Assembly: GCA_041691295.1 (NCBI GenBank)
Contig: JBEPVA010000003.1
Span: 1-51,903 of the forward strand
Origin: Gemmatimonadota bacterium
GTDB taxonomy: Bacteria > Gemmatimonadota > Gemmatimonadetes > Gemmatimonadales > GWC2-71-9
Direction of reading: 5' to 3'
Length of the DNA stretch: 51,903 bases
Each line of letters begins with the position of its first letter. Positions within the stretch are counted from its first letter, which is position 1. The notes beneath the pieces were generated by a model. It worked only from the letters and a program-made list of their open reading frames with translations. It had not been told where the DNA came from and ran no database searches. The translations under genes were made by a program, and so were the position numbers. Shown one piece after another: positions 7,010-48,663 of the stretch.

Positions 7010-7033
7010 CCGGCACTCCTCCGCTCCACCCGA

Positions 7034-25053: not shown

Positions 25054-25102
25054 GAACAGCGAGCAGCGAACAGCGAACAGCGAACAGCGAACAGCGAACT
25101 GG
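25054..25102. repeat. Tandem heptamer array of 7 units
   Basis: Units are gaacagc gagcagc gaacagc x5, located 21 nt upstream of the TerB-like gene start. Confidence 0.85.
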
Positions 25103-25360: not shown

Positions 25361-26746
25361 ATGACCGCCACCACCCCAAAGCCTGTCACCATCAACCAGG
25401 ACCGGCTCGACCGCCTCACGGCCGAGCAGGAACAGCTCTTCATCTCCCGCCAGACCAACTCGGCGATGATGCATAGTCGGGCGGTTGGGAGTCTGGCCGG
25501 CGGAGTCACATCGAGCTGGCAGATCTCGGTGCCCCAGCCGATCTGGATCAGCCATGGCCGAGGCTCCCATGTCTGGGATGTCGACGGGCACGAGTATGTC
25601 GATTTTCATGGCGGTTACGGGGTCGGGCTGGCCGGGCATGCCCATCCGGCGATCGTGGCGGCGGTGAATGCCCGCATTCTGAACGGAACGCACTTCGGCC
25701 AACCCAGTCCTGATGCGCCGCTGGTGGCCGAAGAACTGGTCCGGCGGTTCGGAATGCCGCTCTGGCGGTTTTCCAATTCCGGCACCGAAGCGACGATGAA
25801 CGCCATCCACCTGGCCCGCTCAATCACCGGCCGGATGCGGATCATCAAGTTCGAGGGAGCGTATCACGGCCATCATGACTCGGTCCGGACCCGGATCTGG
25901 CATGAGCCGGTGGATACCGCCCGGGCCGATGGCCAGACCGTGCGGACCAGGGCATCGAGCGGGATTCCGAGCCCGCTGCTGGCCCTGACCGAGGCGGTGC
26001 AGTTCAACGACCTGGAGGCGGTGAGAGCGCTGTTCGAGGTGCACCGCGGGGATATTGCCTGCGTGATTCTGGAACCAATCCTGATGAACTGCGGCATCAT
26101 CTACCCCGACCCCGGATTTCTCGAAGGACTGCGAGCGCTGACCCGGAAGTATGGCGCCCTGCTGATCTATGACGAGGTCAAGACCGGGCTCACGATCCAC
26201 CCCGGTGGAGCGGTCCGCCTGTTTGGCGTCGAGCCTGACATCGTCTGCCTGGCCAAGGCGCTGGGCGGCGGCGTACCGATCGGCGCCATCGGCGGGACCA
26301 CCGAAGTCATGGAGGAGATCGTGAGCGGCCGGTATGAGCAGGTCGGCACCATGAATGGCAATCCGCTATCGATGGCGGTGGCGAAGGCGGTGCTGTACGA
26401 TGTGCTTACTCCGGAAACGTATCGCGAACTCGGGCGGCTGGAGCGCCGAATGGCTGAGGGGGCCGAGCAGATCGTGGCCCGGTTTGGGCTGCCGGCCAGG
26501 GTGGTCACGGCGGGGGCCAAGGGGTCGATCACCTACTCGGAAGTGCCGCTCAAGAACTACCGCCAGTTCCTGACCCTGGACGGCCGGTATGCCTACTGCG
26601 CCTGGCTGTTCCAGTACAATGGCGGGGTGTTCCTGCCCCCGTGGAGCAAAGGCGAGCAGTGGATGCTGTCGGTGCAGCATACCGACGCGGATGTGGACCG
26701 GTACCTGGAGACGCTGGAGCGCTTCGCTGTAGCCATCAGCCATTAG
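25361..26746 (+). CDS. Class III PLP-dependent aminotransferase (glutamate-1-semialdehyde aminomutase-like)
   Basis: DVDGHEYVDFHGGYGVGLAGHAHPAIVAAV, NSGTEATMNAIHLAR, YDEVKTG and LAKALGGGVPIGA. Confidence 0.9.
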   Translation: MTATTPKPVTINQDRLDRLTAEQEQLFISRQTNSAMMHSRAVGSLAGGVTSSWQISVPQPIWISHGRGSHVWDVDGHEYVDFHGGYGVGLAGHAHPAIVAAVNARILNGTHFGQPSPDAPLVAEELVRRFGMPLWRFSNSGTEATMNAIHLARSITGRMRIIKFEGAYHGHHDSVRTRIWHEPVDTARADGQTVRTRASSGIPSPLLALTEAVQFNDLEAVRALFEVHRGDIACVILEPILMNCGIIYPDPGFLEGLRALTRKYGALLIYDEVKTGLTIHPGGAVRLFGVEPDIVCLAKALGGGVPIGAIGGTTEVMEEIVSGRYEQVGTMNGNPLSMAVAKAVLYDVLTPETYRELGRLERRMAEGAEQIVARFGLPARVVTAGAKGSITYSEVPLKNYRQFLTLDGRYAYCAWLFQYNGGVFLPPWSKGEQWMLSVQHTDADVDRYLETLERFAVAISH

Positions 26747-26747
26747 C

Positions 26748-26817
26748 CGAGGGTCGAGGGTCGACGGTCGAGGGTCGAGGGTCGAGGGTCGAGGGTCGAG
26801 GGTCGAGGGTCGAGGGT
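26748..26817. repeat. Tandem heptamer array of 10 units
   Basis: cgagggt x10, with the third unit cgacggt. Starts 2 nt after the aminotransferase stop and ends 5 nt before minigene A. Confidence 0.9.
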
Positions 26818-26822
26818 CGCGA

Positions 26823-27029
26823 ATGTCACATCCGGACCCCCAAACCGCGATCTATTGTGAGACCCTAGCACGGAGGTGCTTCACGAGCCCGAAGAAAAAC
26901 GGCAGCCAGAAGGACCTCAAGCCCCGCGGCATCAAGAGCGGCAGCCAGGAGGCCGCCAGGGTCAAGGGCGGCAAGGTCGCGATGCAGGACTTCCATTTCG
27001 TCAAGAAGACTGACAAGGCGAGCGCTTGA
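26823..27029 (+). CDS. Minigene A: KDLKPR...VKGG leader plus Hcp-like core (KVAMQDFHFVKKTDKASA)
   Basis: Track ORF of 68 aa. The C-terminal 45 aa are paralogous to minigenes B and C at both nucleotide and protein level. The N-terminus is atypical and lacks MTARKK, so the start is uncertain. Confidence 0.5.
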   Translation: MSHPDPQTAIYCETLARRCFTSPKKNGSQKDLKPRGIKSGSQEAARVKGGKVAMQDFHFVKKTDKASA

Positions 27030-27060
27030 CCGGCGCCGTCGACACCCACAGGAGCGTCAG

Positions 27061-27225
27061 ATGACTGCCAGGAAGAAGACCACCAGCGCCGAGGACCTGA
27101 AGCCGCGCGGCATCAAGAGTGGCAGCAAGGAAGCCGGATCGATCAAGGGCGGCGTCAAGCCGGTCGACAAGTCGAGCGCCAAGCTGCATTTGGCCTGCGC
27201 GACGGGCGAACACATCAAGGAGTGA
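27061..27225 (+). CDS. Minigene B, 54 aa: MTARKKTTSAEDLKPRGIKSGSKEAGSIKGG leader plus core VKPVDKSSAKLHLACATGEHIKE
   Basis: Hand translation. AGGAG lies 7 nt upstream of the ATG (acaggagcgtcagATG). Leader paralogous to A, C and E. The core resembles the Hcp segment TKYIDKSTPNLMMACSSGKHY. Confidence 0.7.
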   Translation: MTARKKTTSAEDLKPRGIKSGSKEAGSIKGGVKPVDKSSAKLHLACATGEHIKE

Positions 27226-27260
27226 CTTGATCCACGGGTAAACCGCAACAGGAGATTCAG

Positions 27261-27419
27261 ATGACCGCCAGGAAGAAGACCGCCAAGGTCAAGGACCTGA
27301 AGCCGCGCGGCATCAAGAGCGGCAGCAGGGAAGCCTCGAAGGTGAAGGGCGGCAAGGTCGCCATGCAGGATTTCCACATCGTCAAGACGGTCGATAAGGC
27401 GAGCGCCAAACTCTTCTAG
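27261..27419 (+). CDS. Minigene C, 52 aa: MTARKKTAKVKDLKPRGIKSGSREASKVKGG leader plus core KVAMQDFHIVKTVDKASAKLF
   Basis: Hand translation with an AGGAG Shine-Dalgarno sequence (acaggagattcagATG). The core resembles the Hcp segment GKVNVQDLSFTKYIDKSTPNL. Confidence 0.7.
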   Translation: MTARKKTAKVKDLKPRGIKSGSREASKVKGGKVAMQDFHIVKTVDKASAKLF

Positions 27420-27431
27420 TGAGCCGAGGCA

Positions 27432-27530
27432 TTGGAACTGAAGCCGCGAGGCGTGAATGGCAGCAAGGCCAGCGCCCACGATATCAGCTTCACCCATAGC
27501 GTCGACAAGTCGAGCGCTAAGTTGTTCTAG
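27432..27530 (+). pseudogene. Unit D: leader-truncated copy (ELKPRGVNGSKASAHDISFTHSVDKSSAKLF)
   Basis: In frame with C but separated from it by TAG TGA. Only a TTG start with poor SD spacing is available, and there is no KGG motif. Probably a decayed unit. Confidence 0.3.
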
Positions 27531-27569
27531 GCAGGCTGTCCCACTGGTGCACCCCTACAGGAGCGTCAC

Positions 27570-27743
27570 ATGGTTGCCAAGAAGAAGTCGGCCAAAGCCA
27601 AAGCCCGGGACTTGAAGCCCAAAGCCGTCAAGAGTGACAACGCGGCCGCGGTGAAGGGTGGGATTGGGAGCCAGTCAACCGGGGCCGGCGCCGGCAAAGT
27701 GACGTTCAACCCGTTCTCCATCACCCGCAAGATCGACAAGTAA
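27570..27743 (+). CDS. Minigene E, 57 aa: MVAKKKSAKAKARDLKPKAVKSDNAAAVKGG leader plus core IGSQSTGAGAGKVTFNPFSITRKIDK
   Basis: Hand translation with an AGGAG Shine-Dalgarno sequence (acaggagcgtcacATG, nearly identical to the one upstream of B). The core resembles the Hcp segment GGGAGKVNVQDLSFTKYIDK. Confidence 0.7.
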   Translation: MVAKKKSAKAKARDLKPKAVKSDNAAAVKGGIGSQSTGAGAGKVTFNPFSITRKIDK

Positions 27744-27810: not shown

Positions 27811-27842
27811 GCGGACGGGCGGACGGGCGGACGGGCGGACGC
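27811..27842. repeat. Tandem octamer array of 4 units, followed at 27905-27920 by tctgtct cctgtct
   Basis: gcggacgg x3 plus gcggacgc, located downstream of minigene E. Confidence 0.8.
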
Positions 27843-27982
27843 AAGGTGCCGCCTGCGGCGCCCGCTTCCTATTTTCTGGATCCGCAGTGCTAGCGGGTCC
27901 ATTCTTCTGTCTCCTGTCTCCAGTTTTTCGCTATCTTGCGAAAGACTCCGGCGTTGTGCCGAGTCGTCACACGGAATTGGAC

Positions 27983-30460
27983 ATGACCGACGAAATCGCA
28001 TCCCCTCCGGTTCCCCCCCGCGACAGCGAAGCCGACATCACCAGCCAGCTGGCGGAAGGGTTCTTCAAGACCTTCGCGCCCCGGCTCACCGGCCGGGTCC
28101 GGTCCAAGGCGCTGCAGGACGCCATCGGCGACTCCTGCTCGACAGCCGAGAATCCGACCTGGCTCGCGATCGCCAGCCAGCCACCGATCGAGACCAGGGC
28201 TGCGACTATTCGTGGCCAGGCCCACTCTGCTGCCGGGCTCAAGGCCATCATCAGTTCGTTCCGCTACGCCCTGCCCCGTCTGGGGCCGAGTGCCACGTAC
28301 CACAACTTCCTCGAGGTCAACCAGAAGGACGGATTCGACTGCCAGAGCTGCGCCTGGCCCTCGCCGGATGGCAAGCGGCACCAGTTCGAATTCTGCGAGA
28401 GCGGCGCCAAGGCCATGGCCAGCGAAGGATCGAAGCACACCATCGGGGCCGACTTCTTCCGGAAGTGGAGCATCGAGCAGCTGAGCGGTCAGTCGGACAC
28501 CTGGCTGGAAAGCCAGGGGCGGCTGACCGAACCGATGGTTCGCCGGGCCGGCAGCAGCCACTACGAACCGATCGGCTGGGATGACGCCTTGGCCCTGATC
28601 GGGAAGGAGCTCAACAGCCTCCTGTCGCCGGATTCGGCGGCCTTTTACACCTCGGGGCGGGCCAGCAATGAAGCGGCCTTTCTCTGGCAGCTGTTTGCCC
28701 GGCAGTACGGCACCAACAACCTGCCCGACTGCTCCAACATGTGCCACGAATCCTCCGGCACCGCGCTGGTCCAGAGCCTGGGCATCGGCAAGGGAACCGT
28801 CGTGCTGGAGGATTTCGAGCAGACCGACCTGATCATCCTGGTCGGGCAGAACCCCGGTACCAACCACCCGCGGATGCTGACTTCGCTGGAGCATGCCAAG
28901 AAGCACGGGGCCAAGATCCTCGCTATCAATCCGATGCGGGAAACCGGGTTCATGCGGTTTACCGACCCCAACCCGGACGAGTTCCCCACCCCATTCCATT
29001 TCGCGGCCCATATCCTGGGACCCGGAGTCCCGCTGGCGGATCTGCACCTGCCGGTCCGGATCAATGGCGACATTGCGGTGATCAAGGGACTGATGAAGGT
29101 GATGCTCGCCGAGGATAACCGGCGCGGCGGAGTGATTGACCAGCAGTTCATCGCCGACTCGACCAACGGCTGGGACGCGGTCAAGGCCGACCTCGAAGCC
29201 ACCGGTTGGGACGAGATCGTCGAGGGGTCGGGCCTCACCCGGGCCGAGATCGAAGCGGCCGGAATGATGGCGGCCAGTGCCAAGCGGATGATCTGCTGCT
29301 GGGCCATGGGACTGACCCAGCACAAGAATGCGGTCGCCACCATCCGGACCATGGTCAACATGCTGTTGATGGGCGGGCACATCGGGCGGCCGGGCGCCGG
29401 CACCTGCTGCGTCCGCGGCCACTCCAACGTCCAGGGCGACCGGACCATGGGCATCTGGGAGCGCCCCGGCGAACCGTTTCTCCAGGCGCTCGACAAGGAG
29501 TTCGGCTTCCGGTCGCCGAGGCATTTCGGCAAGGATACCGTTGACACCATTGCGGCGATGCATGACGGGAGTATCGAGGTCTTCATCGGGCTGGGCGGCA
29601 ACTTCCTGGCCTCGGCACCCGATACCGTCACCACCGCCTCGGCGCTGAGCCACTGCCGGCTGACCGCCCAGATCGCGACCAAGCTCAACCGTGGGCACCT
29701 GATCACGGGAGAAACCGCGCTGCTGCTGCCCTGCCTGGGCCGCTCCGAACAGGATGCCGGCGGGGTGGTGACCGTCGAGGACTCGATGGGGATCATCAGC
29801 GCTTCCAGGGGCAAGCGCGCGCCGGCGGGCCCCGAGCTGCGGAGCGAAGTGGGAATCATCGCCGGGATGGCGACCGCGACACTCAAGGGCCGTACCAACA
29901 TTGACTGGCAGGGACTGGCGACCGATCACAGCCGGATCCGGGACCATATCAGCCGGGTGGTGCCGGGGTTCGAGAACTACAACAGCCGGCTGGACCAACC
30001 CTTCTACCTCCCCAACCCCGCTCGGCAGCGGCGGTTCGTGACTGAGAGCAAAAAGGCCGAATTTTTCGTAGCGCCGATCGCGGTGCACCCGGTGAGCAGC
30101 GAACGGTTTCTGATGACAACGGTCCGCAGCCACGACCAGTTCAATACCACCATCTACGCCCTCAACGACCGATATCGCGGCATCTACGGCGGGCGGAGGG
30201 TGGTGTTCATGAATGAGGATGATGCCAGGGAAAAGGGCTGGGCCACCGGCCAGCACGTCGATATCACCAGTCACTTCGAGGACGAGCGGCGAGTCGCGCG
30301 GCACTTCCAGGTGGTGGTCTACACCATCCCGAGGCGATGCGTGGCCACCTACTTCCCCGAGGCCAATGTGCTGGTCCCGATCGGCAGCGTGGCCGACGGG
30401 AGCAATACGCCTACCTACAAGTCGATCATGGTATCGCTGGCCGAAAGCGACGCGCGGTAA
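27983..30460 (+). CDS. FdhF/YdeP-family molybdopterin oxidoreductase
   Basis: I chose ATG at 27983 (MTDEIASPP). Contains NQKDGFDCQSCAWPSPDGKRHQFEFCESGAKAMASE, CSNMCHESSG and a molybdopterin-binding C-terminus. Confidence 0.9.
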   Translation: MTDEIASPPVPPRDSEADITSQLAEGFFKTFAPRLTGRVRSKALQDAIGDSCSTAENPTWLAIASQPPIETRAATIRGQAHSAAGLKAIISSFRYALPRLGPSATYHNFLEVNQKDGFDCQSCAWPSPDGKRHQFEFCESGAKAMASEGSKHTIGADFFRKWSIEQLSGQSDTWLESQGRLTEPMVRRAGSSHYEPIGWDDALALIGKELNSLLSPDSAAFYTSGRASNEAAFLWQLFARQYGTNNLPDCSNMCHESSGTALVQSLGIGKGTVVLEDFEQTDLIILVGQNPGTNHPRMLTSLEHAKKHGAKILAINPMRETGFMRFTDPNPDEFPTPFHFAAHILGPGVPLADLHLPVRINGDIAVIKGLMKVMLAEDNRRGGVIDQQFIADSTNGWDAVKADLEATGWDEIVEGSGLTRAEIEAAGMMAASAKRMICCWAMGLTQHKNAVATIRTMVNMLLMGGHIGRPGAGTCCVRGHSNVQGDRTMGIWERPGEPFLQALDKEFGFRSPRHFGKDTVDTIAAMHDGSIEVFIGLGGNFLASAPDTVTTASALSHCRLTAQIATKLNRGHLITGETALLLPCLGRSEQDAGGVVTVEDSMGIISASRGKRAPAGPELRSEVGIIAGMATATLKGRTNIDWQGLATDHSRIRDHISRVVPGFENYNSRLDQPFYLPNPARQRRFVTESKKAEFFVAPIAVHPVSSERFLMTTVRSHDQFNTTIYALNDRYRGIYGGRRVVFMNEDDAREKGWATGQHVDITSHFEDERRVARHFQVVVYTIPRRCVATYFPEANVLVPIGSVADGSNTPTYKSIMVSLAESDAR

Positions 30461-30520
30461 ACCTCAAGCCATCTGCCGTAGACGCCGACGGCGGGCGGCT
30501 GGACCTGCCGGCGCTGGAGG

Positions 30521-31306
30521 CTAGGGCTCACCGCCATCGTGGAGCGCCTCGAGTTTCCGCTCTAGGCCTTCTCGCCGTGACCGCATGACCTTGAGTCGGG
30601 CACCATCGGTCAGCACGACCACCCCATCGCCTCGAAGCGCCGCCTCGACCGAACGTACCCGGCTCAGGTTCACGATGGTGGACCGGTGGATCCTGATGAA
30701 CCGGTCCGGATCCAGGCGCCGCTCCAGCGAAGCCAGCGTTTCCCGGAGCAGGTGCGCCGTGGACCGCACATGCAGCAGCGCGTAGTAGTCAGCCCCCTCG
30801 ATCCAGTCGACCTCCCCGCTCGGCACCACGATGACCTGCCCCACCTCGCGCACGATCAACCGGCCCACTCCCCTGGGACGGCCCGGCAATCCCTCAAGCA
30901 ACGCCGAGATTCTGGACTGGGCGCTCGCTGCATCCCGGTCACGCCGTTGCGCCCTGACCCGTTCGACCGCCTGGGCCAGCCGTTCCGGTGACACCGGCTT
31001 GAGCAGGTAGTCGAGCGCGTTGACCTCGAAGGCTCGGATGGCGTGGGCATCGAAGGCCGTCACGAAGACCACCAGCGGCAATTGACTACCGGAGAGAGCG
31101 TCGATCAGGTCGAAGCCCGACATTCCGGGCATCTGGATGTCGACGAACAGCACATCCACTTCGAGCTGGTGCAGGCCGGTGAGCGCCGACATCCCGTCGG
31201 CGAAGGTGCCGACGATGGTCAGGCCCGGCAGGCGCTCCAGCAACTCGACCAGCCCCTCCCGGGCCAACGGCTCGTCATCCACCACCACGGCGCGCAGGGA
31301 GTTCAT
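30521..31306 (-). CDS. LytTR-family response regulator (REC + LytTR DNA-binding domain)
   Basis: AVVVDDEPLAREGL...DVLFVDIQMPGMSGFDLI and IVVPSGEVDWIEGADYYALLHV...FIRIHRSTIVNLSRV. ATGA overlap with the kinase stop. Confidence 0.9.
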   Translation of the reverse strand: MNSLRAVVVDDEPLAREGLVELLERLPGLTIVGTFADGMSALTGLHQLEVDVLFVDIQMPGMSGFDLIDALSGSQLPLVVFVTAFDAHAIRAFEVNALDYLLKPVSPERLAQAVERVRAQRRDRDAASAQSRISALLEGLPGRPRGVGRLIVREVGQVIVVPSGEVDWIEGADYYALLHVRSTAHLLRETLASLERRLDPDRFIRIHRSTIVNLSRVRSVEAALRGDGVVVLTDGARLKVMRSRREGLERKLEALHDGGEP

Positions 31307-32412
31307 CGCGACTCCGTGGTGGACGCCGACGGCTGGCGCGGGAGCTCGACCACGACGATGGCACCGGCCCCCGACGGGCCGGGTCGCAGGGACAGCGATG
31401 CGCGCTCCCCATACAGGGCAGTTAGGCGCGCCTTGGTGTGCCCGAGTCCGACACCATCCCGCCGTTTGCCCTCGGCGAGCCCTGCCCCATCGTTCGCGAT
31501 CGTGATCCGCACACCGTCGGTCAGGGCCTCGACCCCGATCTCAAGGTGCAGTGGCCGGGTGGCATCGGTAAAGCCGTGGCGGATGGCATTCTCGACGAGG
31601 GGCTGGAGCAGGAAGGATGGAACGATGGCAGAGTGCAGGGCTTCCGGCGCGTCGAGTCGGACCACCAGTCGATCGGCATATCTGACCTGTTCGATCTCGA
31701 GGTAGTGCCTCACCGCCGCCAGTTCAGATCCGAGCGTCACCAATTGGGCTCGGGAGGACTCCAGCGAATGGCGCAGCAAACCCGCCAGGCGGGTGACCAT
31801 CTGCTCGACATCACCGGTGAGGCCCCGCCGGGCCAGCACGGCAATGCTGTTCAGGGAGTTGAACAGGAAATGCGGATCGAGCTGGGCTCGGAGGGTTTCG
31901 AGCTGGGCATCGGCCAGCTGGGCGTTGAGCCGGGCAGCAGTCACCTCCAGCAGCCGGGCCCGGCGAAGGCTCAGGGAGCTGTATACCACTCCCACGAACG
32001 CGATCCCCAGCAACAGGTCCGTCAGGCCGTTGTGCAGCAGCATATGCAGCCAGGTCTGCGGCAGCGTTCCGCCGAACCCGGCCCAGTGGACCGGCGCGGC
32101 GACCAGCGGGACCAAGCCCACTGGAAGCAGCATGAGAAGAATCAGCTTCCATGCGGTTGAGCCACGGGCCGCTGGATGATCAACCACCCCTGCCATCAGC
32201 GGAACCAGCGCCGCACCCCAGAGCAGCCAGCCCAGCCAGATGGCCGCCTCGGTCGGGAGCAGGTGGCCCCACGGCGTCGCTACCGCCGCCGCCGCGAACT
32301 GCTGCACCATCGTCACAGTTCGGGCGACGGTAACGGCGAGCGCCACTGCCCCGAGGATCACCGGAATCGAGACGCTGCTGGCCGGGCGCTGTGGTAATTC
32401 CAGAATCGTCAT
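31303..32412 (-). CDS. LytS/YehU-type sensor histidine kinase (intramembrane N-terminus + His_kinase PF06580 + HATPase)
   Basis: About 5 TM helices with no evident periplasmic domain, then LRAQLDPHFLFNSLNSIAVL and LLQPLVENAIRHG. Confidence 0.85.
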   Translation of the reverse strand: MTILELPQRPASSVSIPVILGAVALAVTVARTVTMVQQFAAAAVATPWGHLLPTEAAIWLGWLLWGAALVPLMAGVVDHPAARGSTAWKLILLMLLPVGLVPLVAAPVHWAGFGGTLPQTWLHMLLHNGLTDLLLGIAFVGVVYSSLSLRRARLLEVTAARLNAQLADAQLETLRAQLDPHFLFNSLNSIAVLARRGLTGDVEQMVTRLAGLLRHSLESSRAQLVTLGSELAAVRHYLEIEQVRYADRLVVRLDAPEALHSAIVPSFLLQPLVENAIRHGFTDATRPLHLEIGVEALTDGVRITIANDGAGLAEGKRRDGVGLGHTKARLTALYGERASLSLRPGPSGAGAIVVVELPRQPSASTTESR

Positions 32413-32445
32413 CCGGTGAAAGTAGCGTGGCGGAACCCCGCGGCG

Positions 32446-34875
32446 TCAGCCACCGCTCCGCAGCGCAACGATGGGGTCGATCCGTGTGGCCCGCCATGCC
32501 GGAACCATGGCACCGATAACCCCCGTGAGTACGGCGCCGAGCACCACCAGGCCCAGCACCCCGAGGTTGAACGGTCCGACACCGTAGAGCAGTCCTGCCA
32601 GCAGGCGGGCGCTCGACAGGGTCCCAGCCAGACCGATCAGGATGCTGGCGCCCACCACCAGCAGCGATTCCCGTCCCACCAGCTTCACGATTTCGCCCGG
32701 CTTGGCACCGAGCGCGATTCGAACCGCCAGCTCCCGTTCCCGCTGGGTGACCAGGAACGAGAGCACGGCGTAGGTGCCCGCCAGGGCCAGTAGCAGGGCC
32801 GCAAGCGCGTAGCCGGACATCAGGCGGGTGGTGATCGCCATCCGCGCGCCGGCATCACGCACGATGGCATCGAGGGTGAACTGGTTGTAGATCGCTATGT
32901 CGGGGGCGGCCTCGGTGATGATCCGGCGAATTGGCCCCGCCAGGGCCAGCGGATCGCCGGAGGCCCGGGCCACGATGGTGATTTCGGTGGCAAAGCCCAT
33001 CGAGGCCCAGCTGCCGAGCCCAGGCAGATACAGCTCGGGGCGCGGCTCATCGGTCAAACTGCGATTTCTGGCATCCGCCACCACCGCCACGATCGGCATC
33101 CACGGCGAGACCGGTCCGAATCGCAACCGCCGGCCCAGCGGGTCCTCACCATCAGGAAAGAGCCGGCGCGCCAGCCCCTCACTGATGACCACCGGAGTGA
33201 TCCGGGCGCTTGCATCATCGTCACCGAACAGCCGGCCGTGGCGCAATCCGATCTGCATCGCCGCGAAATAGTCGTGACTCACCACCCGATAGTCCGCTAT
33301 CGGGTCAGTTCCGTCCGCCTTGAACGGACGGCCTTCGACCGCCATGGCCAGATCCTCTCTCCCCGGGGTAAGTGGCAGCGCGTTCACCAGACCGGCGGCC
33401 GTCACTCCAGGGAGCTGACCGACGGCGGTGATGAGCCGCCGGAGCAATGATTCCCGCGCCGTCCGGTCCCGTAGCGTGGCGGTGGGCAGGTTGATCCTGA
33501 GGCTGAGCGCCGACCCTGGATTGAATCCGAGCGGCACCCGCTGCACCTCGCGGGCGGATGCGAGCAGAAGACCGGAGCCATGCAGCAGGAGGACGGCGAG
33601 TCCAATCTGGGCGGCAGCAAGGATCCGACGGAGGGCATTGGCGGCGGGCGTTCCGGCGGCCCTGGCTCGCAGACTGCTGGCCGGGTCCCGCCCCGCGGCC
33701 ACGGCCACGGGAAGTGCCCCGACGACGGCGCCGACCACGAGTACGGCGACCGCCGCCGCGACCAGCGTCCTGATCCCGAGCAGCGGTGCCGCGCTGGCGA
33801 TGCCGGCCGGTAATAGTGTGACCATCAGCTTCGATCCAAGCCCGGCGATGGCCAGGCCGATTCCGGCGCCGGCCGCACTCAGGATGATGCCCTCGAGCAA
33901 CGCACCTCGAATGAGCCTGCCTCGGGTGGCACCAAGCGCGGCGCGCACCGCCAGCTCCTCACCACGGACGATGACCCCTGCCAGCTGGAGGTTAGCCACA
34001 TTGGCGCAGGTCAGCAGCAGCAGCAGCAGGACGCCGACAAGCAGCAGCGCCACGACCGGCCGGACATCGCCGACCACCGAATCAGCCAGCGGGTGGACCT
34101 GGGCCAGGTATCCCGATGGATCCAGCACCGACCCGGCGTGCGGGCCGGGAAATTCGCGGCCTACCGCCCGAACTGGCAGGGTCAGATCCCGCCGGGCCGC
34201 CTCGAGACCGGTTCCGGCCTTGAGTCGACCTACGACAGAATACCCATGGTTGTACGGATTGAGGCCGGCGGGATCGAGCCGCAGTGGCTCCCAGGCCGCG
34301 ATCTGGCGCGATCCAAACGTGACGCCCGGTGGCAGCACCCCAACGATCGTGCTGGGTTCTCCCTCGAGGTTCACGACCGTGCCGATCACCGCAGGATCCG
34401 CATTGAACACCGACCGCCAGAGCTGGTCGGACAGGACCAGCAGACGTGGACCGTTCGGCAGGTCCTCACCGGCCGTGAAGCGGCGTCCGAGGGCCGGCGC
34501 GACCCGGAGTACATCGAACAGACTGGCACTGACCTGGGCCACGATGAGCCGGCGCGATCCGTCACCCCGGATCAGGTTGGTGAAGCCGGTTCCCCAGGCC
34601 GCGACCGCGCTGAGGCTGTGACCGTCGCTGACCAGTCGGCGGTACCCGACGTCGGAGAAGCCCAGTTCCGGAAGACCAGGCGCCGGAACGGTCTGGGTGA
34701 TCCGGACCAGCCGCCCCGACTCCGGATAGGGCAGTGGCCGGAGAAGCACGGCATCGACCACGGCAAACACAGCCAATGCTGAGCCGATCCCGAGACCGAG
34801 AGTCAGGGCAATGACGAGCGAATACACCGGTCGCAGCCGGAGTCGCCTGATGGCAAACCAGAGATCGTGCCCCAC
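32446..34875 (-). CDS. ADOP-type duplicated MacB/FtsX-family ABC transporter permease, with no cognate ATPase gene adjacent
   Basis: MGHDLWFAIRRLRLRPVYSLVIALTLGLGIG, two large periplasmic domains each followed by an FtsX 3-helix module, and C-terminal WRATRIDPIVALRSG. Confidence 0.9.
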   Translation of the reverse strand: MGHDLWFAIRRLRLRPVYSLVIALTLGLGIGSALAVFAVVDAVLLRPLPYPESGRLVRITQTVPAPGLPELGFSDVGYRRLVSDGHSLSAVAAWGTGFTNLIRGDGSRRLIVAQVSASLFDVLRVAPALGRRFTAGEDLPNGPRLLVLSDQLWRSVFNADPAVIGTVVNLEGEPSTIVGVLPPGVTFGSRQIAAWEPLRLDPAGLNPYNHGYSVVGRLKAGTGLEAARRDLTLPVRAVGREFPGPHAGSVLDPSGYLAQVHPLADSVVGDVRPVVALLLVGVLLLLLLTCANVANLQLAGVIVRGEELAVRAALGATRGRLIRGALLEGIILSAAGAGIGLAIAGLGSKLMVTLLPAGIASAAPLLGIRTLVAAAVAVLVVGAVVGALPVAVAAGRDPASSLRARAAGTPAANALRRILAAAQIGLAVLLLHGSGLLLASAREVQRVPLGFNPGSALSLRINLPTATLRDRTARESLLRRLITAVGQLPGVTAAGLVNALPLTPGREDLAMAVEGRPFKADGTDPIADYRVVSHDYFAAMQIGLRHGRLFGDDDASARITPVVISEGLARRLFPDGEDPLGRRLRFGPVSPWMPIVAVVADARNRSLTDEPRPELYLPGLGSWASMGFATEITIVARASGDPLALAGPIRRIITEAAPDIAIYNQFTLDAIVRDAGARMAITTRLMSGYALAALLLALAGTYAVLSFLVTQRERELAVRIALGAKPGEIVKLVGRESLLVVGASILIGLAGTLSSARLLAGLLYGVGPFNLGVLGLVVLGAVLTGVIGAMVPAWRATRIDPIVALRSGG

Positions 34876-34878
34876 CGC

Positions 34879-35250
34879 TCAGCTCGGCGGGGATGCCCGG
34901 CGACGGCCTGCCACCGAACCGGCATTCTCGCCGAAGGTGAACGGGCCAGTGACCGAATCGGCGCGGAAGAGGAGGTCGTAGTGGATGACATCGCCGGGCG
35001 CGGTATTGTCGAGCACCAGCCGGTTCCCCTTCCTGAGGGTTGGCCCGACCGGCGAGATGTGATCGCCGATCCTCAGGGTTACCGCGGTGCTGTCGTGGAG
35101 AATGGCAATCTCGAGGCTGCCTTCCATGGTGCCGCCACCGTAGGTGATTTCGAGGTCGTACGTCCCGGAGCGGATCGGCGGGGTGGCCTGAGCGCCGAGT
35201 GCCGGCGCCGCGGTGAGGGCGGCGATAAGGAATGGCAGGACACGAGTCAC
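34879..35250 (-). CDS. Small secreted beta-rich protein; first gene of the permease/kinase/regulator operon
   Basis: I chose GTG at 35250, preceded by GGAGG and a 5-nt spacer. Signal peptide TRVLPFLIAALTAAPALGAQA. The stop lies 3 nt before the permease ATG. Confidence 0.6.
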   Translation of the reverse strand: MTRVLPFLIAALTAAPALGAQATPPIRSGTYDLEITYGGGTMEGSLEIAILHDSTAVTLRIGDHISPVGPTLRKGNRLVLDNTAPGDVIHYDLLFRADSVTGPFTFGENAGSVAGRRRASPPS

Positions 35251-35520
35251 GATTTCCTCCACGAGGGATTGGGGTCCTGGTCGCCAGACGGCCCACCCTC
35301 GAGAAAGCTTCGACCAGGCAGCCAAACCGACTTCTCGAGCAGCCAATCGGCTTCGACATCGGCTCCTGCCGACCTGGCCATGTCACATCCCGGTCGGCGT
35401 TTTTGATCTCAGGTGAACCCCACCGTCTACCTCAACCGGAGCGAACCATGTCGACCTCGTAGAAGACCAGGATGGGTACCCCCAAGGACCTCAAGCCCCG
35501 CAAGACGATCAGGGGAAACC

Positions 35521-35679
35521 ATGACCATGGCCAAGCGGGACAAGGACTGGAGCCGGGCGGTGGAGGCGGACGAGGCGGCGGCGGTGCGGGGTGGGGATGG
35601 GCAGACCAAGAAGCCGCCGAAGGATCGCCAGCCGCTGATGGTGTACAAGCTCGAGGATATCCAGATCAGCGGCACCTGA
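35521..35679 (+). CDS. Minigene F, 52 aa: MTMAKRDKDWSRAVEADEAAAVRGG leader plus core DGQTKKPPKDRQPLMVYKLEDIQISGT
   Basis: Hand translation. The ...AAAVRGG leader end is present. The core resembles the Hcp strand YLIITLKEVLVSS. A KDLKPRK leader piece lies just upstream in another frame (ATG 35472). Confidence 0.5.
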   Translation: MTMAKRDKDWSRAVEADEAAAVRGGDGQTKKPPKDRQPLMVYKLEDIQISGT

Positions 35680-35856
35680 CCGTCCTGAAGGACCGAAGCC
35701 CCTGCCAGTTTTCCGGGTGCGGGCTTCGTCGTTCCGGCCCTACCGCCCAGGACGCGCTGCAGCCCACTCCAGCCTGGGCGGGGGTGCTGTCATATTCGAT
35801 TGAGCAACTTCGATATCAAGATAGGTCGCGCAACCCGATCCCTTCTGGAGGACACC

Positions 35857-36033
35857 ATGGCCAAGGCGAAGAAGAGCAGCAGATCCAAGGATTTGGAGAG
35901 AGTCAAGACCGTTTCATCAGATCAGGCCAGATCCGTACGGGGCGGCGACAAAGCCGTCGTTCACAGGGTGGGGGGCAAGTCGCAGCTGGAGTACGTCCGG
36001 GTGGTCATGAAGGAAGTGATCATCACCAGCTGA
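35857..36033 (+). CDS. Minigene G, 58 aa: MAKAKKSSRSKDLERVKTVSSDQARSVRGG leader plus core DKAVVHRVGGKSQLEYVRVVMKEVIITS
   Basis: GGAGG lies 5 nt upstream of the ATG at 35857, which is internal to track ORF 35800..36033. The core closely resembles the Hcp segment KAGGENQVEYLIITLKEVLVSS. Confidence 0.65.
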   Translation: MAKAKKSSRSKDLERVKTVSSDQARSVRGGDKAVVHRVGGKSQLEYVRVVMKEVIITS

Positions 36034-36165
36034 TTGCACTGAAGGGGTTCAGGCTCTTGCGCTGATGTGAGGGCCCCGTGATTCCGACGCCCCCTCCCGT
36101 TTTTCAGGTTGGGGGCTTCGTCTTTCTGGTGACGCCCGCCGGCGGACCGGCGATTAGCTTGGGAC

Positions 36166-37629
36166 ATGCCCTCCCACATCACCAAGCAGTCGTTCCTCGC
36201 GGCCCTGCGCTGCCCCACGATGGGTTGGCGGGTGCTCCGTGAAGAGGGGGAATCGATGACTCCAGCCCTCGAGTGGCGCTTCTGGGTCGGGAACGAGGTG
36301 GGTCGGGCCGCTCGGGCTCAACTGGGCACTGGCCTGCTCTTGCCGTGGCAGCCTTCAGAAGTTGGCGTCCGGGAAACCCACAAGGCGCTCGCCGATTCCA
36401 GCGTCCAACTGATGTTCGAACCGACCTTCAGCCATGGCCCCTTTACCGCGCGGGCGGACGCCATCCGTCGTACCGCCTCCGGCCTGGAGCTGATCGAGGT
36501 CAAGTCGGGTAAAGCCGCCGAAGAGGGAGAAGCAGTCAAGCGAGACTACCTCGATGACCTGGCCTACACCGCGTTCGTGGCTGGCGAAGCGGGAGTCACC
36601 GCCACCCGCTTCCTCCTGATGCTGATCAATCGGGACTACCGGCTCGGCGGTACCGCGCCGTTGATGACCGAGATCGACGTCACCGAGCAGATCCTGCCGC
36701 TGGTCGAACTGTTCCGGAACAACGCGCCGGAAATCGCCGACGCATTGCTGGCCGACGTCGAACCGAATCCGGAACTCAAGTTCGTCTGCCGGGAGTGCCC
36801 GTATTTCGAGAAGGATTGCGTCGGGTTCGGCATCCCCGATCCGCTGTTCTTCATCCCCCGGCTGCAGCAGAAGCGGTTCGATGGGCTCAAGCAGTTTGCC
36901 AGGATCTCGGCCATCCCGCCGAGCGAGAAGCTGACCGAGATCCAGGAACGGGTGGCCCGAGTCATCCGCAGCGGTCAGGCGGAAGCAGACCATGCCGGCC
37001 TCGCGCCGCTGCATTCGCTGGCCTGGCCCATCTTCTATCTGGACTTCGAAGGGGTCAATCCGGCGCTGCCCTGGTTTCCCGATGCGGCACCGTATCAGTC
37101 GATGCCGTTCCAGTATTCGCTGCATCGGATCGACGGCCCGGAGCAACTGGTTATCCATTCGTCATACCTGGCGGCACCGATCGGCGACTGGCGCCACGAC
37201 CTCTGCGCGCAGCTGCTGGACGATCTGGGGGACCGCGGCAGCATCGTGGTGTATTCCAACTACGAGAAGACGGCGCTCAACTACCTGGCCCGGATGCTGC
37301 CGGATCAGGCGACGCGAATTGCCGCCGTGATTGACCGGCTGTTTGACCTGGAGACGATGATCAAGAACGGCTACTGCCATCCCGGTTTCCGGGGCCGTTC
37401 CAGCATCAAGAATGTGCTACCGGTGATGGTCCAGGGTCCCGGGTACGCCGATCTGGCTATCCAGGGTGGCGAGAGCGCCTCGGCGATCTTTGCCCTGATG
37501 CGGGTTGGGAAGTATGACGGAACCCCGACCTCGAAGTATCGCCAGCAGCTGCTCGACTACTGCGCGCTCGACACCCTGGCAATGGTCAAGGTGCATGAGG
37601 CGTTGCTGGACATAAGTCGTAAGCCGTAA
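36166..37629 (+). CDS. DUF2779 domain protein (PD-(D/E)xK-like N-terminus + exonuclease-like C-terminus)
   Basis: LELIEVKSGK, a CRECPYFEKDC cluster and WPIFYLDFEGVNPALPWFPDAAPYQSMPFQYSLH. Confidence 0.75.
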   Translation: MPSHITKQSFLAALRCPTMGWRVLREEGESMTPALEWRFWVGNEVGRAARAQLGTGLLLPWQPSEVGVRETHKALADSSVQLMFEPTFSHGPFTARADAIRRTASGLELIEVKSGKAAEEGEAVKRDYLDDLAYTAFVAGEAGVTATRFLLMLINRDYRLGGTAPLMTEIDVTEQILPLVELFRNNAPEIADALLADVEPNPELKFVCRECPYFEKDCVGFGIPDPLFFIPRLQQKRFDGLKQFARISAIPPSEKLTEIQERVARVIRSGQAEADHAGLAPLHSLAWPIFYLDFEGVNPALPWFPDAAPYQSMPFQYSLHRIDGPEQLVIHSSYLAAPIGDWRHDLCAQLLDDLGDRGSIVVYSNYEKTALNYLARMLPDQATRIAAVIDRLFDLETMIKNGYCHPGFRGRSSIKNVLPVMVQGPGYADLAIQGGESASAIFALMRVGKYDGTPTSKYRQQLLDYCALDTLAMVKVHEALLDISRKP

Positions 37630-37648
37630 GTCGTTGGTCGTTGGTCGT
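37614..37648. repeat. Tandem heptamer array of 5 units overlapping the DUF2779 stop
   Basis: Units are aagtcgt aagccgt aagtcgt tggtcgt tggtcgt. Confidence 0.75.
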
Positions 37649-37669
37649 TAATGATTCGGGGGGCAGCCC

Positions 37670-38788
37670 ATGATTCTCGCTGTGACGATCGCCACCGCCC
37701 TGCTTACCTCACCTCGGCCACTCCCCGCTCATGCCGGTGCTGCGGTCTGGTTCGAGCTGGGTCATCGGGTGGTTGCCAGGATTGCGGAAGGACGGCTCAC
37801 ACCGCAGGCCGCGGCCGCCGTACGCGATCTCCTGGCCGGTGAATCGATGGCGGATGCCTCGGTCTGGGCCGATGAGATCCGCGGTCGGCGCCGGGAAACC
37901 GCCAGTCAGCACTTCGTCAACATCCCGCTGGCTGTCACGCAATACGACTCCACCACCCAATGCCCCGGCGGCGCCTGTATCATCGCGGCGATCGAGTCCG
38001 ACCGCCGCCTCCTGGCTGATCCGGCGGCAACCGAGAACCAGCGTGCCGAGGCGCTCCGGTTCCTGATTCATTTCATCGGGGACCTGCACCAGCCATTGCA
38101 TGTGTCGGATCACGGTGACCGCGGCGGGAACGACCTGCAGGTCCAATTCTTCGGGACACCCGACAACCTGCACAAGGTGTGGGACGGTGAGCTGATCGAA
38201 CGGGCGGGCCTCGACGAGAACGCCTACTTCGACCGTTTGCAGCGCCAGATGAATTCCCTGCCGCTCGACAGCCTGAGTGGCGGCACGGTCATCGACTGGG
38301 CTATGGAGGGCCACCGGATCGCGGCGGAGCAGGTCTATCGCCTGCCGGTGGGCGGAAATATCGCCGACCAGTATGAAAACGCCGAGTTACCGGTGGTGGA
38401 CCTGGCGATCATCAAGGCGGGAGTCCGATTGGCGCGAGTGCTCAACGAGGCGCTGGCCAGCTACACCCCACCGGCGCGGGCGGCTTCACTGGGCGCAGGG
38501 ATCTATTCGGACCGGGAGGCCGCAGGGCACGATGGGGAACAGGCAACGGTGGTCGGCATCGTGGTGACTGTGTACCACACCGGGTCCGGCAACAGCTATC
38601 TCAACTTCGGCGGAGACTATCCTCATCAAACCTTCAGCGGTTTCGTCGAACACCCCACCGACCCAGCGCTCCGCGGCCTGGACAGTCTGGCCGGGAAGCG
38701 CATCAGCATCCAGGGCGTGATCAAGCGATATAACGGCACTCCGGAAATCCGGGTCACCAGCCGGAATCAGATCACCGAACGCCCCTGA
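37670..38788 (+). CDS. S1/P1-family nuclease with a C-terminal OB-fold-like domain
   Basis: WFELGHRVVARIAE, ADASVWADEIR, LRFLIHFIGDLHQPLHV and NLHKVWDG. C-terminus VVGIVVTVYHTGSGNSYLNFGG...ISIQGVIKRYNGTPEIRV. Confidence 0.9.
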   Translation: MILAVTIATALLTSPRPLPAHAGAAVWFELGHRVVARIAEGRLTPQAAAAVRDLLAGESMADASVWADEIRGRRRETASQHFVNIPLAVTQYDSTTQCPGGACIIAAIESDRRLLADPAATENQRAEALRFLIHFIGDLHQPLHVSDHGDRGGNDLQVQFFGTPDNLHKVWDGELIERAGLDENAYFDRLQRQMNSLPLDSLSGGTVIDWAMEGHRIAAEQVYRLPVGGNIADQYENAELPVVDLAIIKAGVRLARVLNEALASYTPPARAASLGAGIYSDREAAGHDGEQATVVGIVVTVYHTGSGNSYLNFGGDYPHQTFSGFVEHPTDPALRGLDSLAGKRISIQGVIKRYNGTPEIRVTSRNQITERP

Positions 38789-48662: not shown

Positions 48663-48663
48663 C

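Follow-up and report, generated by a model that had tools for sequence, protein, structure and literature searches.

An ADOP permease, a LytS-family kinase and a LytTR regulator in a predicted, putatively autoregulated operon of Gemmatimonadales

What might a duplicated FtsX/MacB-type permease do when its neighbours are a histidine kinase, a response regulator and a small exported protein, and no ATPase gene is at hand? This question is raised by four genes on the minus strand of the window (the whole stretch of 51,903 nt analysed here), which the initial annotation had read as a module for sensing or exporting the products of neighbouring double-glycine-leader minigenes. [quoted passage not shown] We argue here, with a confidence only a little better than even (a probability of about 0.55), that positions 30521–35346 form a self-contained, positively autoregulated and Gemmatimonadales-specific operon, in which the kinase reads the permease, and which is not tied to the minigenes. 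The features discussed are as follows.

30521–35250, minus strand: four-gene array, in the order small exported protein gene, ADOP permease gene, kinase gene, regulator gene
35318–35346, minus strand: operator-like direct repeat, TTGGCTGC-N13-TTGGCTGC (21-bp register), a predicted LytTR site
35251–35317, minus strand: predicted core promoter and 5′ UTR; the ribosome-binding site, GGAGG, precedes the GTG start codon by 5 nt
34879–35250, minus strand: small exported protein, 123 aa (signal-peptide N-terminus, orthologues)
32446–34875, minus strand: ADOP duplicated FtsX/MacB-type permease, 809 aa (Pfam, NCBIfam, AF2 model)
31303–32412, minus strand: LytS/YehU-family (PF06580) histidine kinase, 369 aa (Pfam, topology, orthologue alignment)
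30521–31306, minus strand: response regulator, 261 aa, receiver plus LytTR (Pfam), its start overlapping the kinase stop

A conserved four-gene array

Reading the ORFs and their junctions directly from the sequence confirmed all four genes and the tight packing that had been ascribed to them: the TGA of the small gene is followed after 3 nt (GCG) by the GTG of the permease gene, 33 nt separate the permease stop from the kinase ATG, and the stop codon of the kinase gene overlaps the regulator's start codon in ATGA (31303–31306). GC3 is 0.76–0.84 in the four frames, which supports them as coding. The same order (small ORF, ADOP, His_kinase, Response_reg plus LytTR, on one strand and with tiny gaps) is kept in all ten independent Gemmatimonadales genomes examined, and also in three partial contigs wherever the positions are covered. 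Retention in 10/10 related genomes places the arrangement beyond chance, and the genes flanking these ten loci differ and are unrelated. The operon is also present in a close relative (L031), at 92–95 % identity to the window, which is too near for it to serve as an independent case. The small-protein family (149 clusters, all of about 120–145 aa and free of Pfam matches) and the orthologue group of the permease (about 110 clusters) are similar in size and occur on common contigs; their source names are all Gemmatimonadota, apart from one cluster of the permease group (P0069) labelled Geminicoccaceae. From this synteny, the four genes appear to be a conserved operon of soil Gemmatimonadales.

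An ADOP permease without an adjacent ATPase gene

The permease is a bona fide member of the ADOP family, duplicated and lacking both a nucleotide-binding domain (NBD) and an adjacent ATPase. Its match to the NCBIfam model TIGR03434 ('ADOP family duplicated permease') reaches 688.2 bits (cut-off 622.3) and is full-length, spanning residues 3–807 of the protein and positions 3–802 of the 803 in the model, and Pfam recognizes two MacB_PCD and two FtsX domains in the single chain, so that its earlier description as an ADOP/MacB-like double-FtsX protein was well founded (as were the family assignments of the kinase and regulator, given below). Eight transmembrane (TM) helices are predicted (KD topology, AF2 model), with two periplasmic MacB_PCD domains (about 40–272 and 437–690) and only about 20 cytoplasmic residues ahead of TM1. 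The AF2 model (pLDDT 77) finds its best full-length structural match in Escherichia coli YbbP (9ge6, E = 6e-21), followed by MacB, LolCDE, HrtBA and BceAB; by sequence, MacB is the best match among solved structures (E = 2e-15 to 3e-11). As modelled, the protein would have the MacB-type 4-TM FtsX fold of type VII ABC transporters, including the stalk helices and the periplasmic domain of Porter/Sabre type.

More than 5,700 relatives were found with this query at E ≤ 1e-50, among which the roughly 110 clusters of the tight orthologue group are 52–71 % identical to it, the next-best matches dropping to 38 %. Conservation peaks in the stalk helices (TM1, 2, 5 and 6), in both cytoplasmic coupling loops and in a stretch of periplasmic domain 2, a pattern expected of a working mechanotransmission device. 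The coupling loops are highly conserved although a cognate ATPase gene is absent from the window and from flanks of about 10 kb. No ORF with Walker-A and LSGGQ motifs occurs in any frame of the window or in the 13 operon loci, in a scan whose positive control (on locus L022) worked; tblastn of the window with C39-ABC, ABC and HlyD-like queries gave nothing at E below 0.2, and Pfam detected no ABC ATPase or C39 peptidase in the 27 larger ORFs of the window, exactly as the initial annotation had maintained. [quoted passage not shown]

The usual pairing of the ADOP family is with PadR, and one operon locus (L002) has a PadR–ADOP pair close by. Other settings were also encountered: an acidobacterial ADOP of 38 % identity is followed by a GAF–SpoIIE phosphatase, and another locus (L001, 4819–8388) encodes an ADOP permease whose N-terminus carries a fused Ser/Thr kinase domain, a fusion that ties ADOP permeases to kinase signalling. 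The fused domain lies exactly where MacB carries its NBD.

A small exported protein, probably a beta-barrel

The first gene of the array starts with GTG at 35250, a GGAGG Shine–Dalgarno sequence lying 5 nt upstream. Its product was rightly called a small secreted protein, having an N-terminal signal peptide (and no lipobox Cys), and matches nothing in Pfam or NCBIfam. The longest mechanical ORF (TTG at 35346, 155 aa) was rejected, as it would overlap the conserved operator and receives no support from the orthologue alignment. At every locus an orthologue, 42–51 % identical, immediately precedes the ADOP gene. The AF2 model (pLDDT 87) has eight strands, and Foldseek aligns it with eight-stranded barrels (de novo barrels, Cap15, FABP/CRBP) at TM-scores of 0.5–0.57 and E of about 1e-3; such matches are weak, at the level of fold, and would indicate no particular ligand. 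The mature protein is therefore best described as a predicted eight-stranded up-and-down beta-barrel of about 95 aa following the signal peptide, and it is a candidate periplasmic partner of the permease.

The kinase and its regulator

Pfam assigns the kinase a His_kinase domain (PF06580, E = 1e-24) and HATPase_c (E = 4e-6), and no further domain such as 5TMR_LYT, the 5-TM receptor domain of LytS. The phospho-accepting histidine of the PHFLFN motif is H181. Four TM helices are predicted (residues 11–29, 58–76, 90–108 and 125–147), and the loops between them are of only 28, 13 and 16 aa, so that there is no extracytoplasmic domain; topology prediction in this way agrees with the initial view of a LytS-type kinase with intramembrane helices only. 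In the orthologue alignment, W62, W65, P97, V101, P102, H123, H127 and N128 of the TM module are invariant. The kinase gene is immediately downstream of the ADOP gene in every locus, starting 21–123 nt behind it in the loci fetched by encoding contig. The window also holds a paralogous 4-TM LytS/LytTR pair (47847–49800) with no adjoining ADOP gene; the kinase of this pair is 35 % identical, and the positions of H123, H127 and N128 are not conserved in the alignment.

The regulator, already recognized as of LytTR type, has Response_reg (E = 4e-24) and LytTR (E = 4e-18) domains and a predicted phospho-acceptor at D56, completing with the PF06580–HATPase_c kinase the make-up of a LytS/LytTR two-component system. 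Its best NCBIfam similarities are to BtsR (E = 8e-47) and LytR, both below the equivalog cut-offs, and its orthologues are 58–66 % identical over full-length alignments.

A predicted operator upstream of the small gene

LytTR regulators bind two 9–11-nt repeats separated by 11–13 nt (PMC4847170). A direct repeat resembling such operators (an 8-bp core with a 13-nt spacer, TTSSCTGC-N13-TTSSCTGC) is found 64–92 nt upstream of the small gene at 10/10 independent loci. In the window it ends 67 nt upstream of the start codon and is the sole exact match in the 52 kb; it is identical in the close relative. With a leave-one-out position weight matrix (PWM), the repeat ranks first in every locus, scoring 18.6–41.9 bits where the runner-up reaches at most 10.8 (25.4 against 8.6 bits in the window). 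Its geometry and conservation mark it as the predicted target of the LytTR regulator encoded in the operon, although it could instead belong to another regulator. No sigma-70 consensus is recognizable in 35251–35317, so the promoter is placed by reference to the operator and the start codon. The position of the operator, upstream of the whole operon, would suit equally a kinase that senses the permease and one that merely controls its production.

Are the neighbouring minigenes part of the system?

In the window, a YdeP/FdhF-family gene (27887–30460) and the minigenes do lie beside the operon as the initial annotation had placed them, cluster 1 beyond the YdeP-like gene and, divergent from the small gene, a KDLK-leader minigene. 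The start of this minigene is some 100 nt away from the operator, which lies within the intergenic region (about 200 nt) that the two genes share. This adjacency, which recurs in the close relative, and the presence of canonical double-glycine leaders in the minigene family lent some appeal to the proposal that the module senses and/or exports the KDLKPR..GG products, with the LytTR regulator controlling the minigenes in the manner of ComE, BlpR or AgrA. Conserved synteny, which the initial annotation had itself set as a test of that proposal, is not borne out, however, by the wider comparison: two minigene HMMs found nothing (E ≤ 1) in the flanks of the operon in the ten independent Gemmatimonadales genomes (up to 10 kb searched on each side, less in L004, L009 and L011), and the only adjacency outside the window is that in the close relative, where the operon has the F-type minigene at its opposite end. 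The window's own divergent copy (35449–35520) contains a stop codon and a frame change that disrupt it, and looks degenerate. Minigene homologues elsewhere adjoin either a Peptidase_C39–ABC exporter with ABC and HlyD-like genes (L022–L024) or unrelated genes, with no ADOP or LytTR gene near any of them. The operator-like repeat tracks the small gene and not the minigenes, there being no copy near cluster 1 or near minigenes F and G (best PWM scores −4.3 and −4.8 bits, against 25.4). As to the pheromone parallel, it holds for the DNA-binding domain of the regulator and fails for the kinase, which is of PF06580 and not of AgrC/ComD/BlpH type; MacB-like peptide export, likewise suggested, would depend on an NBD and an adaptor protein, and no locus encodes either; a C39 peptidase is also absent. 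We therefore consider a role in sensing or exporting these peptides very improbable, and from the comparative evidence the operon does not appear to be functionally tied to the minigenes.

Could the minigenes nevertheless have come under local influence, the module being independent and its bound regulator also acting on the divergent minigene promoter in one lineage? The operator does lie in the shared intergenic region, and L031 shares this arrangement with the window. These two are, however, too close to provide independent evidence, the orientation and distance of the repeat track the small gene in all lineages, and the divergent copy is the degenerate one, so such co-option seems a slim prospect.

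How might the operon work?

We suggest that the ADOP protein works as a membrane machine of type VII ABC fold (MacB/YbbP-like) and has a pair of periplasmic domains, and that the exported barrel would be its periplasmic partner, probably a binding or hand-off protein for some hydrophobic or amphipathic envelope compound. The kinase, with no sensing domain of its own, would follow the permease's state from inside the membrane, as BceS does that of BceAB, and would phosphorylate the LytTR regulator, which would then bind the 8-bp direct repeats upstream of the small gene and raise transcription of all four genes. Both the signalling from permease to kinase and the positive sign of the regulation are inferred, the former being supported by the conserved synteny and by the kinase–ADOP fusion in L001. 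Overall, the best reading of the module is as an autoregulated, type VII ABC-like device for envelope sensing or detoxification.

Synteny by itself cannot separate a kinase that senses the permease from a kinase that regulates it. The kinase might respond to some membrane or envelope cue through its own 4-TM module, with the permease and barrel as mere effectors (for example an efflux or extraction device with its ATPase encoded elsewhere) and no signal passing from permease to kinase. That such a kinase can work alone is suggested by the ADOP-less paralogous pair, and many pumps adjoin a dedicated regulator, the PadR–ADOP pair of L002 being an instance. We nevertheless think this rather unlikely, though with a real chance of being right: the kinase has no recognizable input domain, the conservation of its TM module is specific to the orthologues linked to ADOP, its gene keeps its close distance behind the permease gene in all the loci fetched by encoding contig, a kinase and an ADOP permease are fused in L001, and permease–kinase complexes have a precedent among type VII systems in BceAB-S (PMC11009047, PMC12646458).

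A bolder extension of permease-to-kinase signalling would make the orphan ADOP permeases ATPase-independent receptors rather than transporters, with the mechanotransmission fold of type VII ABC systems operating backwards. When a ligand or the barrel bound the periplasmic domains, the stalk helices and the conserved cytoplasmic coupling loops would shift, and it would be a kinase rather than an ABC ATPase that the loops dock on and switch, the kinase acting in trans (the LytS-family protein of the operon) or in cis (the Ser/Thr kinase of L001). We offer this as a speculation with the odds well against it. If true, it would add a new class to the transmembrane receptors of bacteria, and would account for the hundreds of ADOP paralogues that never have an ATPase gene alongside.

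Even with the more conservative proposal of an autoregulated sensing or detoxifying device, the operon provides a concrete and testable entry point to the ADOP permeases, giving one subfamily a candidate periplasmic partner, a dedicated kinase and regulator, and a predicted operator. It would extend the rule that the partner protein defines the function of such systems (PMC12646458) to a case in which periplasmic and membrane kinase partners occur together, and permease-coupled two-component sensing would reach beyond the Firmicutes. A tempting but unsupported link to the minigenes is at the same time removed, leaving these as a separate matter.

Comparison with known systems

MacAB–TolC includes the closest solved relative by sequence, MacB_PCD and FtsX domains being common to MacB and the ADOP permease. 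MacB, however, is a homodimer of 4-TM chains with a fused N-terminal NBD and needs MacA and TolC, whereas none of these is encoded at the operon loci, where neither a fused NBD nor an adjacent HlyD/MFP adaptor gene was found. Within its own family the permease also stands apart, an exported barrel and a LytS/LytTR pair replacing the PadR repressor partner of other ADOPs.

LytSR, BtsSR/YehUT, YpdAB and AlgZR share with the operon the PF06580 PHFLFN His box with HATPase_c, and the receiver with LytTR, and its predicted operator of two direct repeats in a 21-bp register is a further resemblance, but the operon kinase has four helices and no match to the 5TM sensor, and scores lie far below the equivalog cut-offs of BtsR and LytR. 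Linkage of a LytS/LytTR pair to a type VII permease was not described in the literature searched. AgrCA, ComDE and BlpHR resemble the operon in their LytTR-type regulators and direct-repeat operators. Their AgrC/ComD-type kinases, however, form a separate family (PF14501) of peptide receptors with 6–7 TM helices, and are encoded with a pheromone gene and a C39–ABC exporter; no such kinase, conserved peptide gene or exporter accompanies the operon.

Type VII ABC systems are defined by their partners, whether periplasmic (TesA, LolA, EnvC) or, in the case of BceS, a membrane kinase (PMC12646458, PMC11009047). YbbP of the YbbAP–TesA system resembles the ADOP permease in that one chain forms an internally duplicated FtsX permease with two MacB-like domains on the periplasmic side, and in that a small periplasmic partner is encoded alongside (PMC12646458). 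It differs in having 10 TM helices (8 here) and an adjacent ATPase, YbbA, in its partner (the SGNH hydrolase TesA rather than an eight-stranded barrel) and in having no two-component system attached, and its sequence identity to the ADOP permease is 16 %.

BceAB–BceRS, a flux-sensing module of antimicrobial-peptide resistance in Firmicutes, likewise combines an FtsX-fold permease bearing a large extracytoplasmic domain with a kinase devoid of a sensing domain and a regulator that induces the permease (PMC11009047). The operon, too, encodes its permease together with a kinase that has no sensing domain outside the cytoplasm, and Bce-type permease-assisted sensing, invoked from the outset, is still the most reasonable mechanistic frame. 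The Bce permease nevertheless differs: it spans the membrane with 10 helices, and its single extracytoplasmic domain lies between TM7 and TM8 (PMC11009047), whereas the ADOP permease has eight helices and two periplasmic domains. The adjacent ATPase BceA has no counterpart in the Gemmatimonadota operon, and the periplasmic barrel gene is an addition. Bce kinases are 2-TM proteins and Bce regulators are of OmpR type; because the operon has a 4-TM LytS-family kinase and a regulator of LytTR type, the analogy would be architectural only. The operon is best read as a variant on both the Bce and the YbbAP–TesA themes.

A conserved four-gene unit

Four tightly packed minus-strand genes had been described in the initial annotation and assigned to families, and the open reading frames, a reading of the junctions and searches of Pfam and NCBIfam all agree with that description:

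34879-35250, minus strand, small gene
32446-34875, minus strand, ADOP permease
31303-32412, minus strand, kinase
30521-31306, minus strand, regulator

The window has a G+C content of 65 %, and in all four frames GC varies with codon position as it does in real genes. Between the small gene and the permease gene the sequence reads TGA-GCG-GTG, a gap of 3 nt; 33 nt separate the permease stop from the ATG of the kinase gene, which in turn overlaps the regulator gene by ATGA. The start of the small gene had rightly been placed at the GTG at 35250, which is preceded by GGAGG, and the mechanically longest frame is wrong: a 155-aa version beginning at TTG (35346) would cover the operator-like repeat discussed below, has no conservation and was rejected. 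Plus-strand frames across the operon (e.g. 33428-34621) were likewise discarded as shadow frames, on the evidence of GC3 and the strong homology of the minus-strand genes. The regulator has Response_reg and LytTR domains, and the kinase His_kinase (PF06580) and HATPase_c; the permease has two MacB_PCD and two FtsX domains and scores 688 bits (cut-off 622) against TIGR03434, 'ADOP family duplicated permease'. The permease is thus assigned to the ADOP family and the kinase-regulator pair to the LytS/LytTR class. Nothing was found by a promoter and terminator scan of 30300-36200, by Rfam on the whole window or by PADLOC on the four operon proteins.

The orthologue group of the permease is sharply bounded, with about 110 clusters at 52-71 % identity, beyond which identity falls to 38 %; its named sources are Gemmatimonadota, Gemmatimonadales or Gemmatimonadaceae, except for one labelled Geminicoccaceae. 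Contexts were available for six orthologues on contigs between 22 kb and 1.3 Mb long, and further loci came from scanning a genome collection with an ADOP alignment, giving ten independent genomes (loci L001, L002, L003, L004, L006, L007, L009, L010, L011 and L017) and three partial contigs. When gene order was checked by tblastn with the four window proteins, the order small gene, permease, kinase, regulator was kept in every locus covering those positions, and the flanking genes were different in every genome. These four genes form a single conserved unit. No ABC ATPase gene was present in any of these loci (a positive control worked), nor was any C39 or HlyD gene found in them; in the window itself a search for ABC ATPase, C39 peptidase and HlyD-like genes found none, as had been noted for the first two.

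Beside the operon in the window (36166-38788) lies a gene for a DUF2779/PD-(D/E)XK-like nuclease, which keeps its place in a close relative (proteins 92-95 % identical), followed after 40 nt by an S1/P1 nuclease gene whose product is extended by about 110 aa at its C terminus.

An operator-like repeat upstream of the small gene

When the 330 nt ahead of the small gene were aligned by eye, ten of ten loci proved to share a direct repeat, TTSSCTGC-N13-TTSSCTGC, which ends 64-92 nt ahead of the start codon; the spacer is conserved too (aCCAnTCGTCGsn). In the window it is:

35318-35346, minus strand, direct repeat, the sole exact match in 52 kb

With a position weight matrix built from the nine other sites, the window repeat scores 25.4 bits and the runner-up 8.6, while the minigene regions reach no more than -4.3 and -4.8 bits; leave-one-out matrices put the repeat at the top in all ten loci (18.6-41.9 bits, against at most 10.8). 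The spacer also resembles the AlgR site CCGTTCGTC, which serves as a lead only. A sigma-54 or ECF promoter was considered and dropped, as neither the spacing nor the motifs fit, the repeat being directly duplicated with a 21-bp register. Published LytTR operators have two repeats of 9-11 nt with spacers of 11-13 nt, in a register of about 21 bp (PMC4847170). The simplest reading is that the repeat would be bound by the operon's own LytTR regulator and that the operon, because this regulator is taken to bind upstream of it, is probably autoregulated; both the binding and the sign of the regulation are inferred.

The small gene encodes a predicted barrel protein

The small protein has a signal peptide and matches no Pfam or NCBIfam family; its orthologues share 42-51 % identity, with invariant D53, S54, H64, S66 and P67. 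Its family comprises 149 clusters, all of about 116-147 aa and none with a Pfam match, whose source names are solely Gemmatimonadota. An AF2 model (pLDDT 87) has a disordered signal peptide and then eight antiparallel strands, and its Foldseek matches are eight-stranded up-and-down barrels, a fold-level likeness only (TM 0.5-0.57, E about 1e-3), among them de novo ligand-binding barrels, the nucleotide-receptor barrel of Cap15 and fatty-acid- or retinoid-binding proteins. A lipoprotein or LolA-like protein was rejected, since there is no lipobox Cys and the eight strands of the model close into a barrel of roughly 95 aa. Among 1.8 billion representatives a profile search found 145 relatives, some with 2-7 tandem copies of the domain and no Pfam family. 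Four proteins from this search (P0288, P0292, P0295 and P0302), 350-790 aa long, have 3-7 tandem copies, again with no Pfam family. The barrel would seem to be a repeat domain of extracytoplasmic proteins that has not yet been described. Matches to Ig repeats (P0308, P0334) had weak profile scores, looked like beta-strand noise and were set aside.

Permease and kinase

In the permease, hydropathy predicts eight TM helices and a pair of periplasmic domains, each of about 235-250 residues; the AF2 model (pLDDT 77) likewise has eight TM helices and two periplasmic domains. The best full-length structural match is YbbP of E. coli (9ge6, E 6e-21), followed by MacB, the Spr0694-0695 transporter of S. 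pneumoniae (5xu1), LolCDE, HrtBA and BceAB; by sequence, MacB proteins are the closest solved relatives. Conservation among orthologues peaks in TM1, 2, 5 and 6, in two cytoplasmic loops matching NBD-coupling helices, and in residues 508-532 and 583-607 of periplasmic domain 2.

The kinase had been said to have intramembrane helices only. Hydropathy supports this: there are four TM helices, and no extracytoplasmic domain, since the loops have just 28, 13 and 16 residues. The TM module has invariant Trp, Pro, His and Asn among operon-linked orthologues. The window also has, on the minus strand, a paralogous LytS-family kinase/LytTR regulator pair (47847-48686 and 48664-~49800) with 35 % (kinase) and 44 % (regulator) identity to the operon pair; no ADOP or barrel gene was found beside it, nor the operator motif nearby.

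The neighbouring minigenes

Seven short peptide genes (A-G) flank the operon:

26823-27743, minigenes A-E, T6SS_HCP-fragment peptides
35521-35679, minigene F, T6SS_HCP-fragment family
35857-36033, minigene G, T6SS_HCP-fragment family

The family is real. Of the seven minigenes, five have sub-threshold matches to the same part (positions 37-78) of the Pfam T6SS_HCP profile (E 2e-4 to 2e-2), and the core of G aligns to residues 86-112 of P. aeruginosa Hcp1; each encodes a leader and a 20-30-aa fragment of Hcp, the T6SS tube protein. Homologues keep Hcp-fragment cores and differ in their leaders, some having the KDLKPR...VKGG type of Gemmatimonadota and others canonical double-glycine leaders, for example LTDAELDAVIGG and LSEAELEKATGG. 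Such genes elsewhere include:

L022 (locus from another genome), 6976-7615, Hcp-fragment peptide genes
L020 (locus from another genome), 1278-1836, Hcp-fragment peptide genes

The informative contexts are L022-L024, in which three such peptides adjoin a Peptidase_C39-ABC exporter, another ABC protein and a protein resembling HlyD, and within a single cluster the Hcp segment differs between peptides; other homologues adjoin unrelated genes. These look like secreted peptides of one family, each with a fragment of Hcp. A literature search found none described, and the family may be a more surprising and interesting object of the window than the operon.

Does the operon act on these peptides? The initial annotation had proposed that it senses or exports them and that its LytTR regulator controls the minigenes, and had offered conserved synteny as the test. 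On that measure the link is unsupported, because neither minigene-type HMM had a match (E<=1) at the operon locus of any of the ten independent genomes and the adjacency was seen only in the window and in the relative with proteins 92-95 % identical (L016, L020, L021, L030-L032). The reciprocal test has limited power for the KDLKPR leader type, since a metagenome scan for such minigenes gave just two short contigs. The regulator might have co-opted a minigene promoter purely locally, and the adjacency in the close relative would suit this, but we think it improbable.

The minigene region is evolving fast. At 35449-35520 the window has a degenerate, divergent KDLK-leader minigene (MSTS, a stop, MGTPKDLKPRKTI..., then a frame change into F), and at the same position the close relative has an intact 51-aa frame (L031, 1741-1896; MSTSKKPKIGIPKDLKSRKTIDPREAASVKGG...) with a KDLKSRK leader, the F-like sequence there being degenerate; an F-type minigene lies in this relative at the opposite end of the operon, between the YdeP and regulator genes. 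The conserved neighbour of cluster 1 (minigenes A-E) is an upstream class-III aminotransferase gene (25361-26746), an adjacency also found in the close relative (L021) and in a more distant soil-metagenome contig (L028, minigene 52 % identical). The neighbourhood also has three tandem arrays:

25054-25099, 7-mer GAACAGC x6.6
26748-26819, 7-mer CGAGGGT x10.3
27811-27841, 8-mer GCGGACGG x3.9

The last two bracket cluster 1, and L004 has a comparable array of heptamers (GAGTTGA) upstream of its operon.

A possible envelope-sensing module, and its likeness to known systems

What might the operon do? Our literature search turned up no account of ADOP function or of this combination of genes. Other ADOP permeases stand in signalling contexts, and these support a signalling role. 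In a Gemmatimonadota MAG, 1.2 kb from the orthologous operon, a 1189-aa protein (L001, 4819-8388) has an N-terminal Ser/Thr protein kinase (residues 92-336), in the position of the NBD/ATPase of MacB, fused to a complete ADOP (MacB_PCD/FtsX x2). In two acidobacterial contigs (L026, 6001-10153, and L027) a 38 %-identical ADOP is followed by a GAF-SpoIIE (PP2C) phosphatase and, in the longer, also by a sigma-54 activator; in L002 a PadR regulator precedes another ADOP.

Type VII ABC systems work on the periplasmic side, their function being set by partner proteins, namely MacA/TolC, EnvC, LolA, TesA or the membrane kinase BceS (PMC12646458). The kinase of a Bce module lacks a sensing domain and follows the permease through its conformational cycle, and expression of the permease operon is switched on by the regulator (PMC11009047). 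The barrel is a candidate periplasmic partner of the ADOP, and the operon kinase a candidate membrane kinase partner; the ADOP-barrel pair would then be both the sensory and the working part, its state being read by the kinase. Because the operon joins these two themes, we consider it somewhat better than an even chance (about 0.55) that it is an autoregulated envelope-sensing or detoxifying module of this kind. The main rival, in which the kinase senses alone and the permease is just its output, seems to us rather unlikely. As to the source of energy, no linked ATPase was found in any genome examined. A reading of ADOPs as receptors that need no ATPase and rely on mechanotransmission in reverse would accord with this, and we regard it as a rather long shot.

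When the defining features of a Bce module, a MacAB pump and an Agr/Com/Blp cassette were sought, the operon fell outside each of these classes; in its working it would come closest to a hybrid between BceAB-S and YbbAP-TesA.
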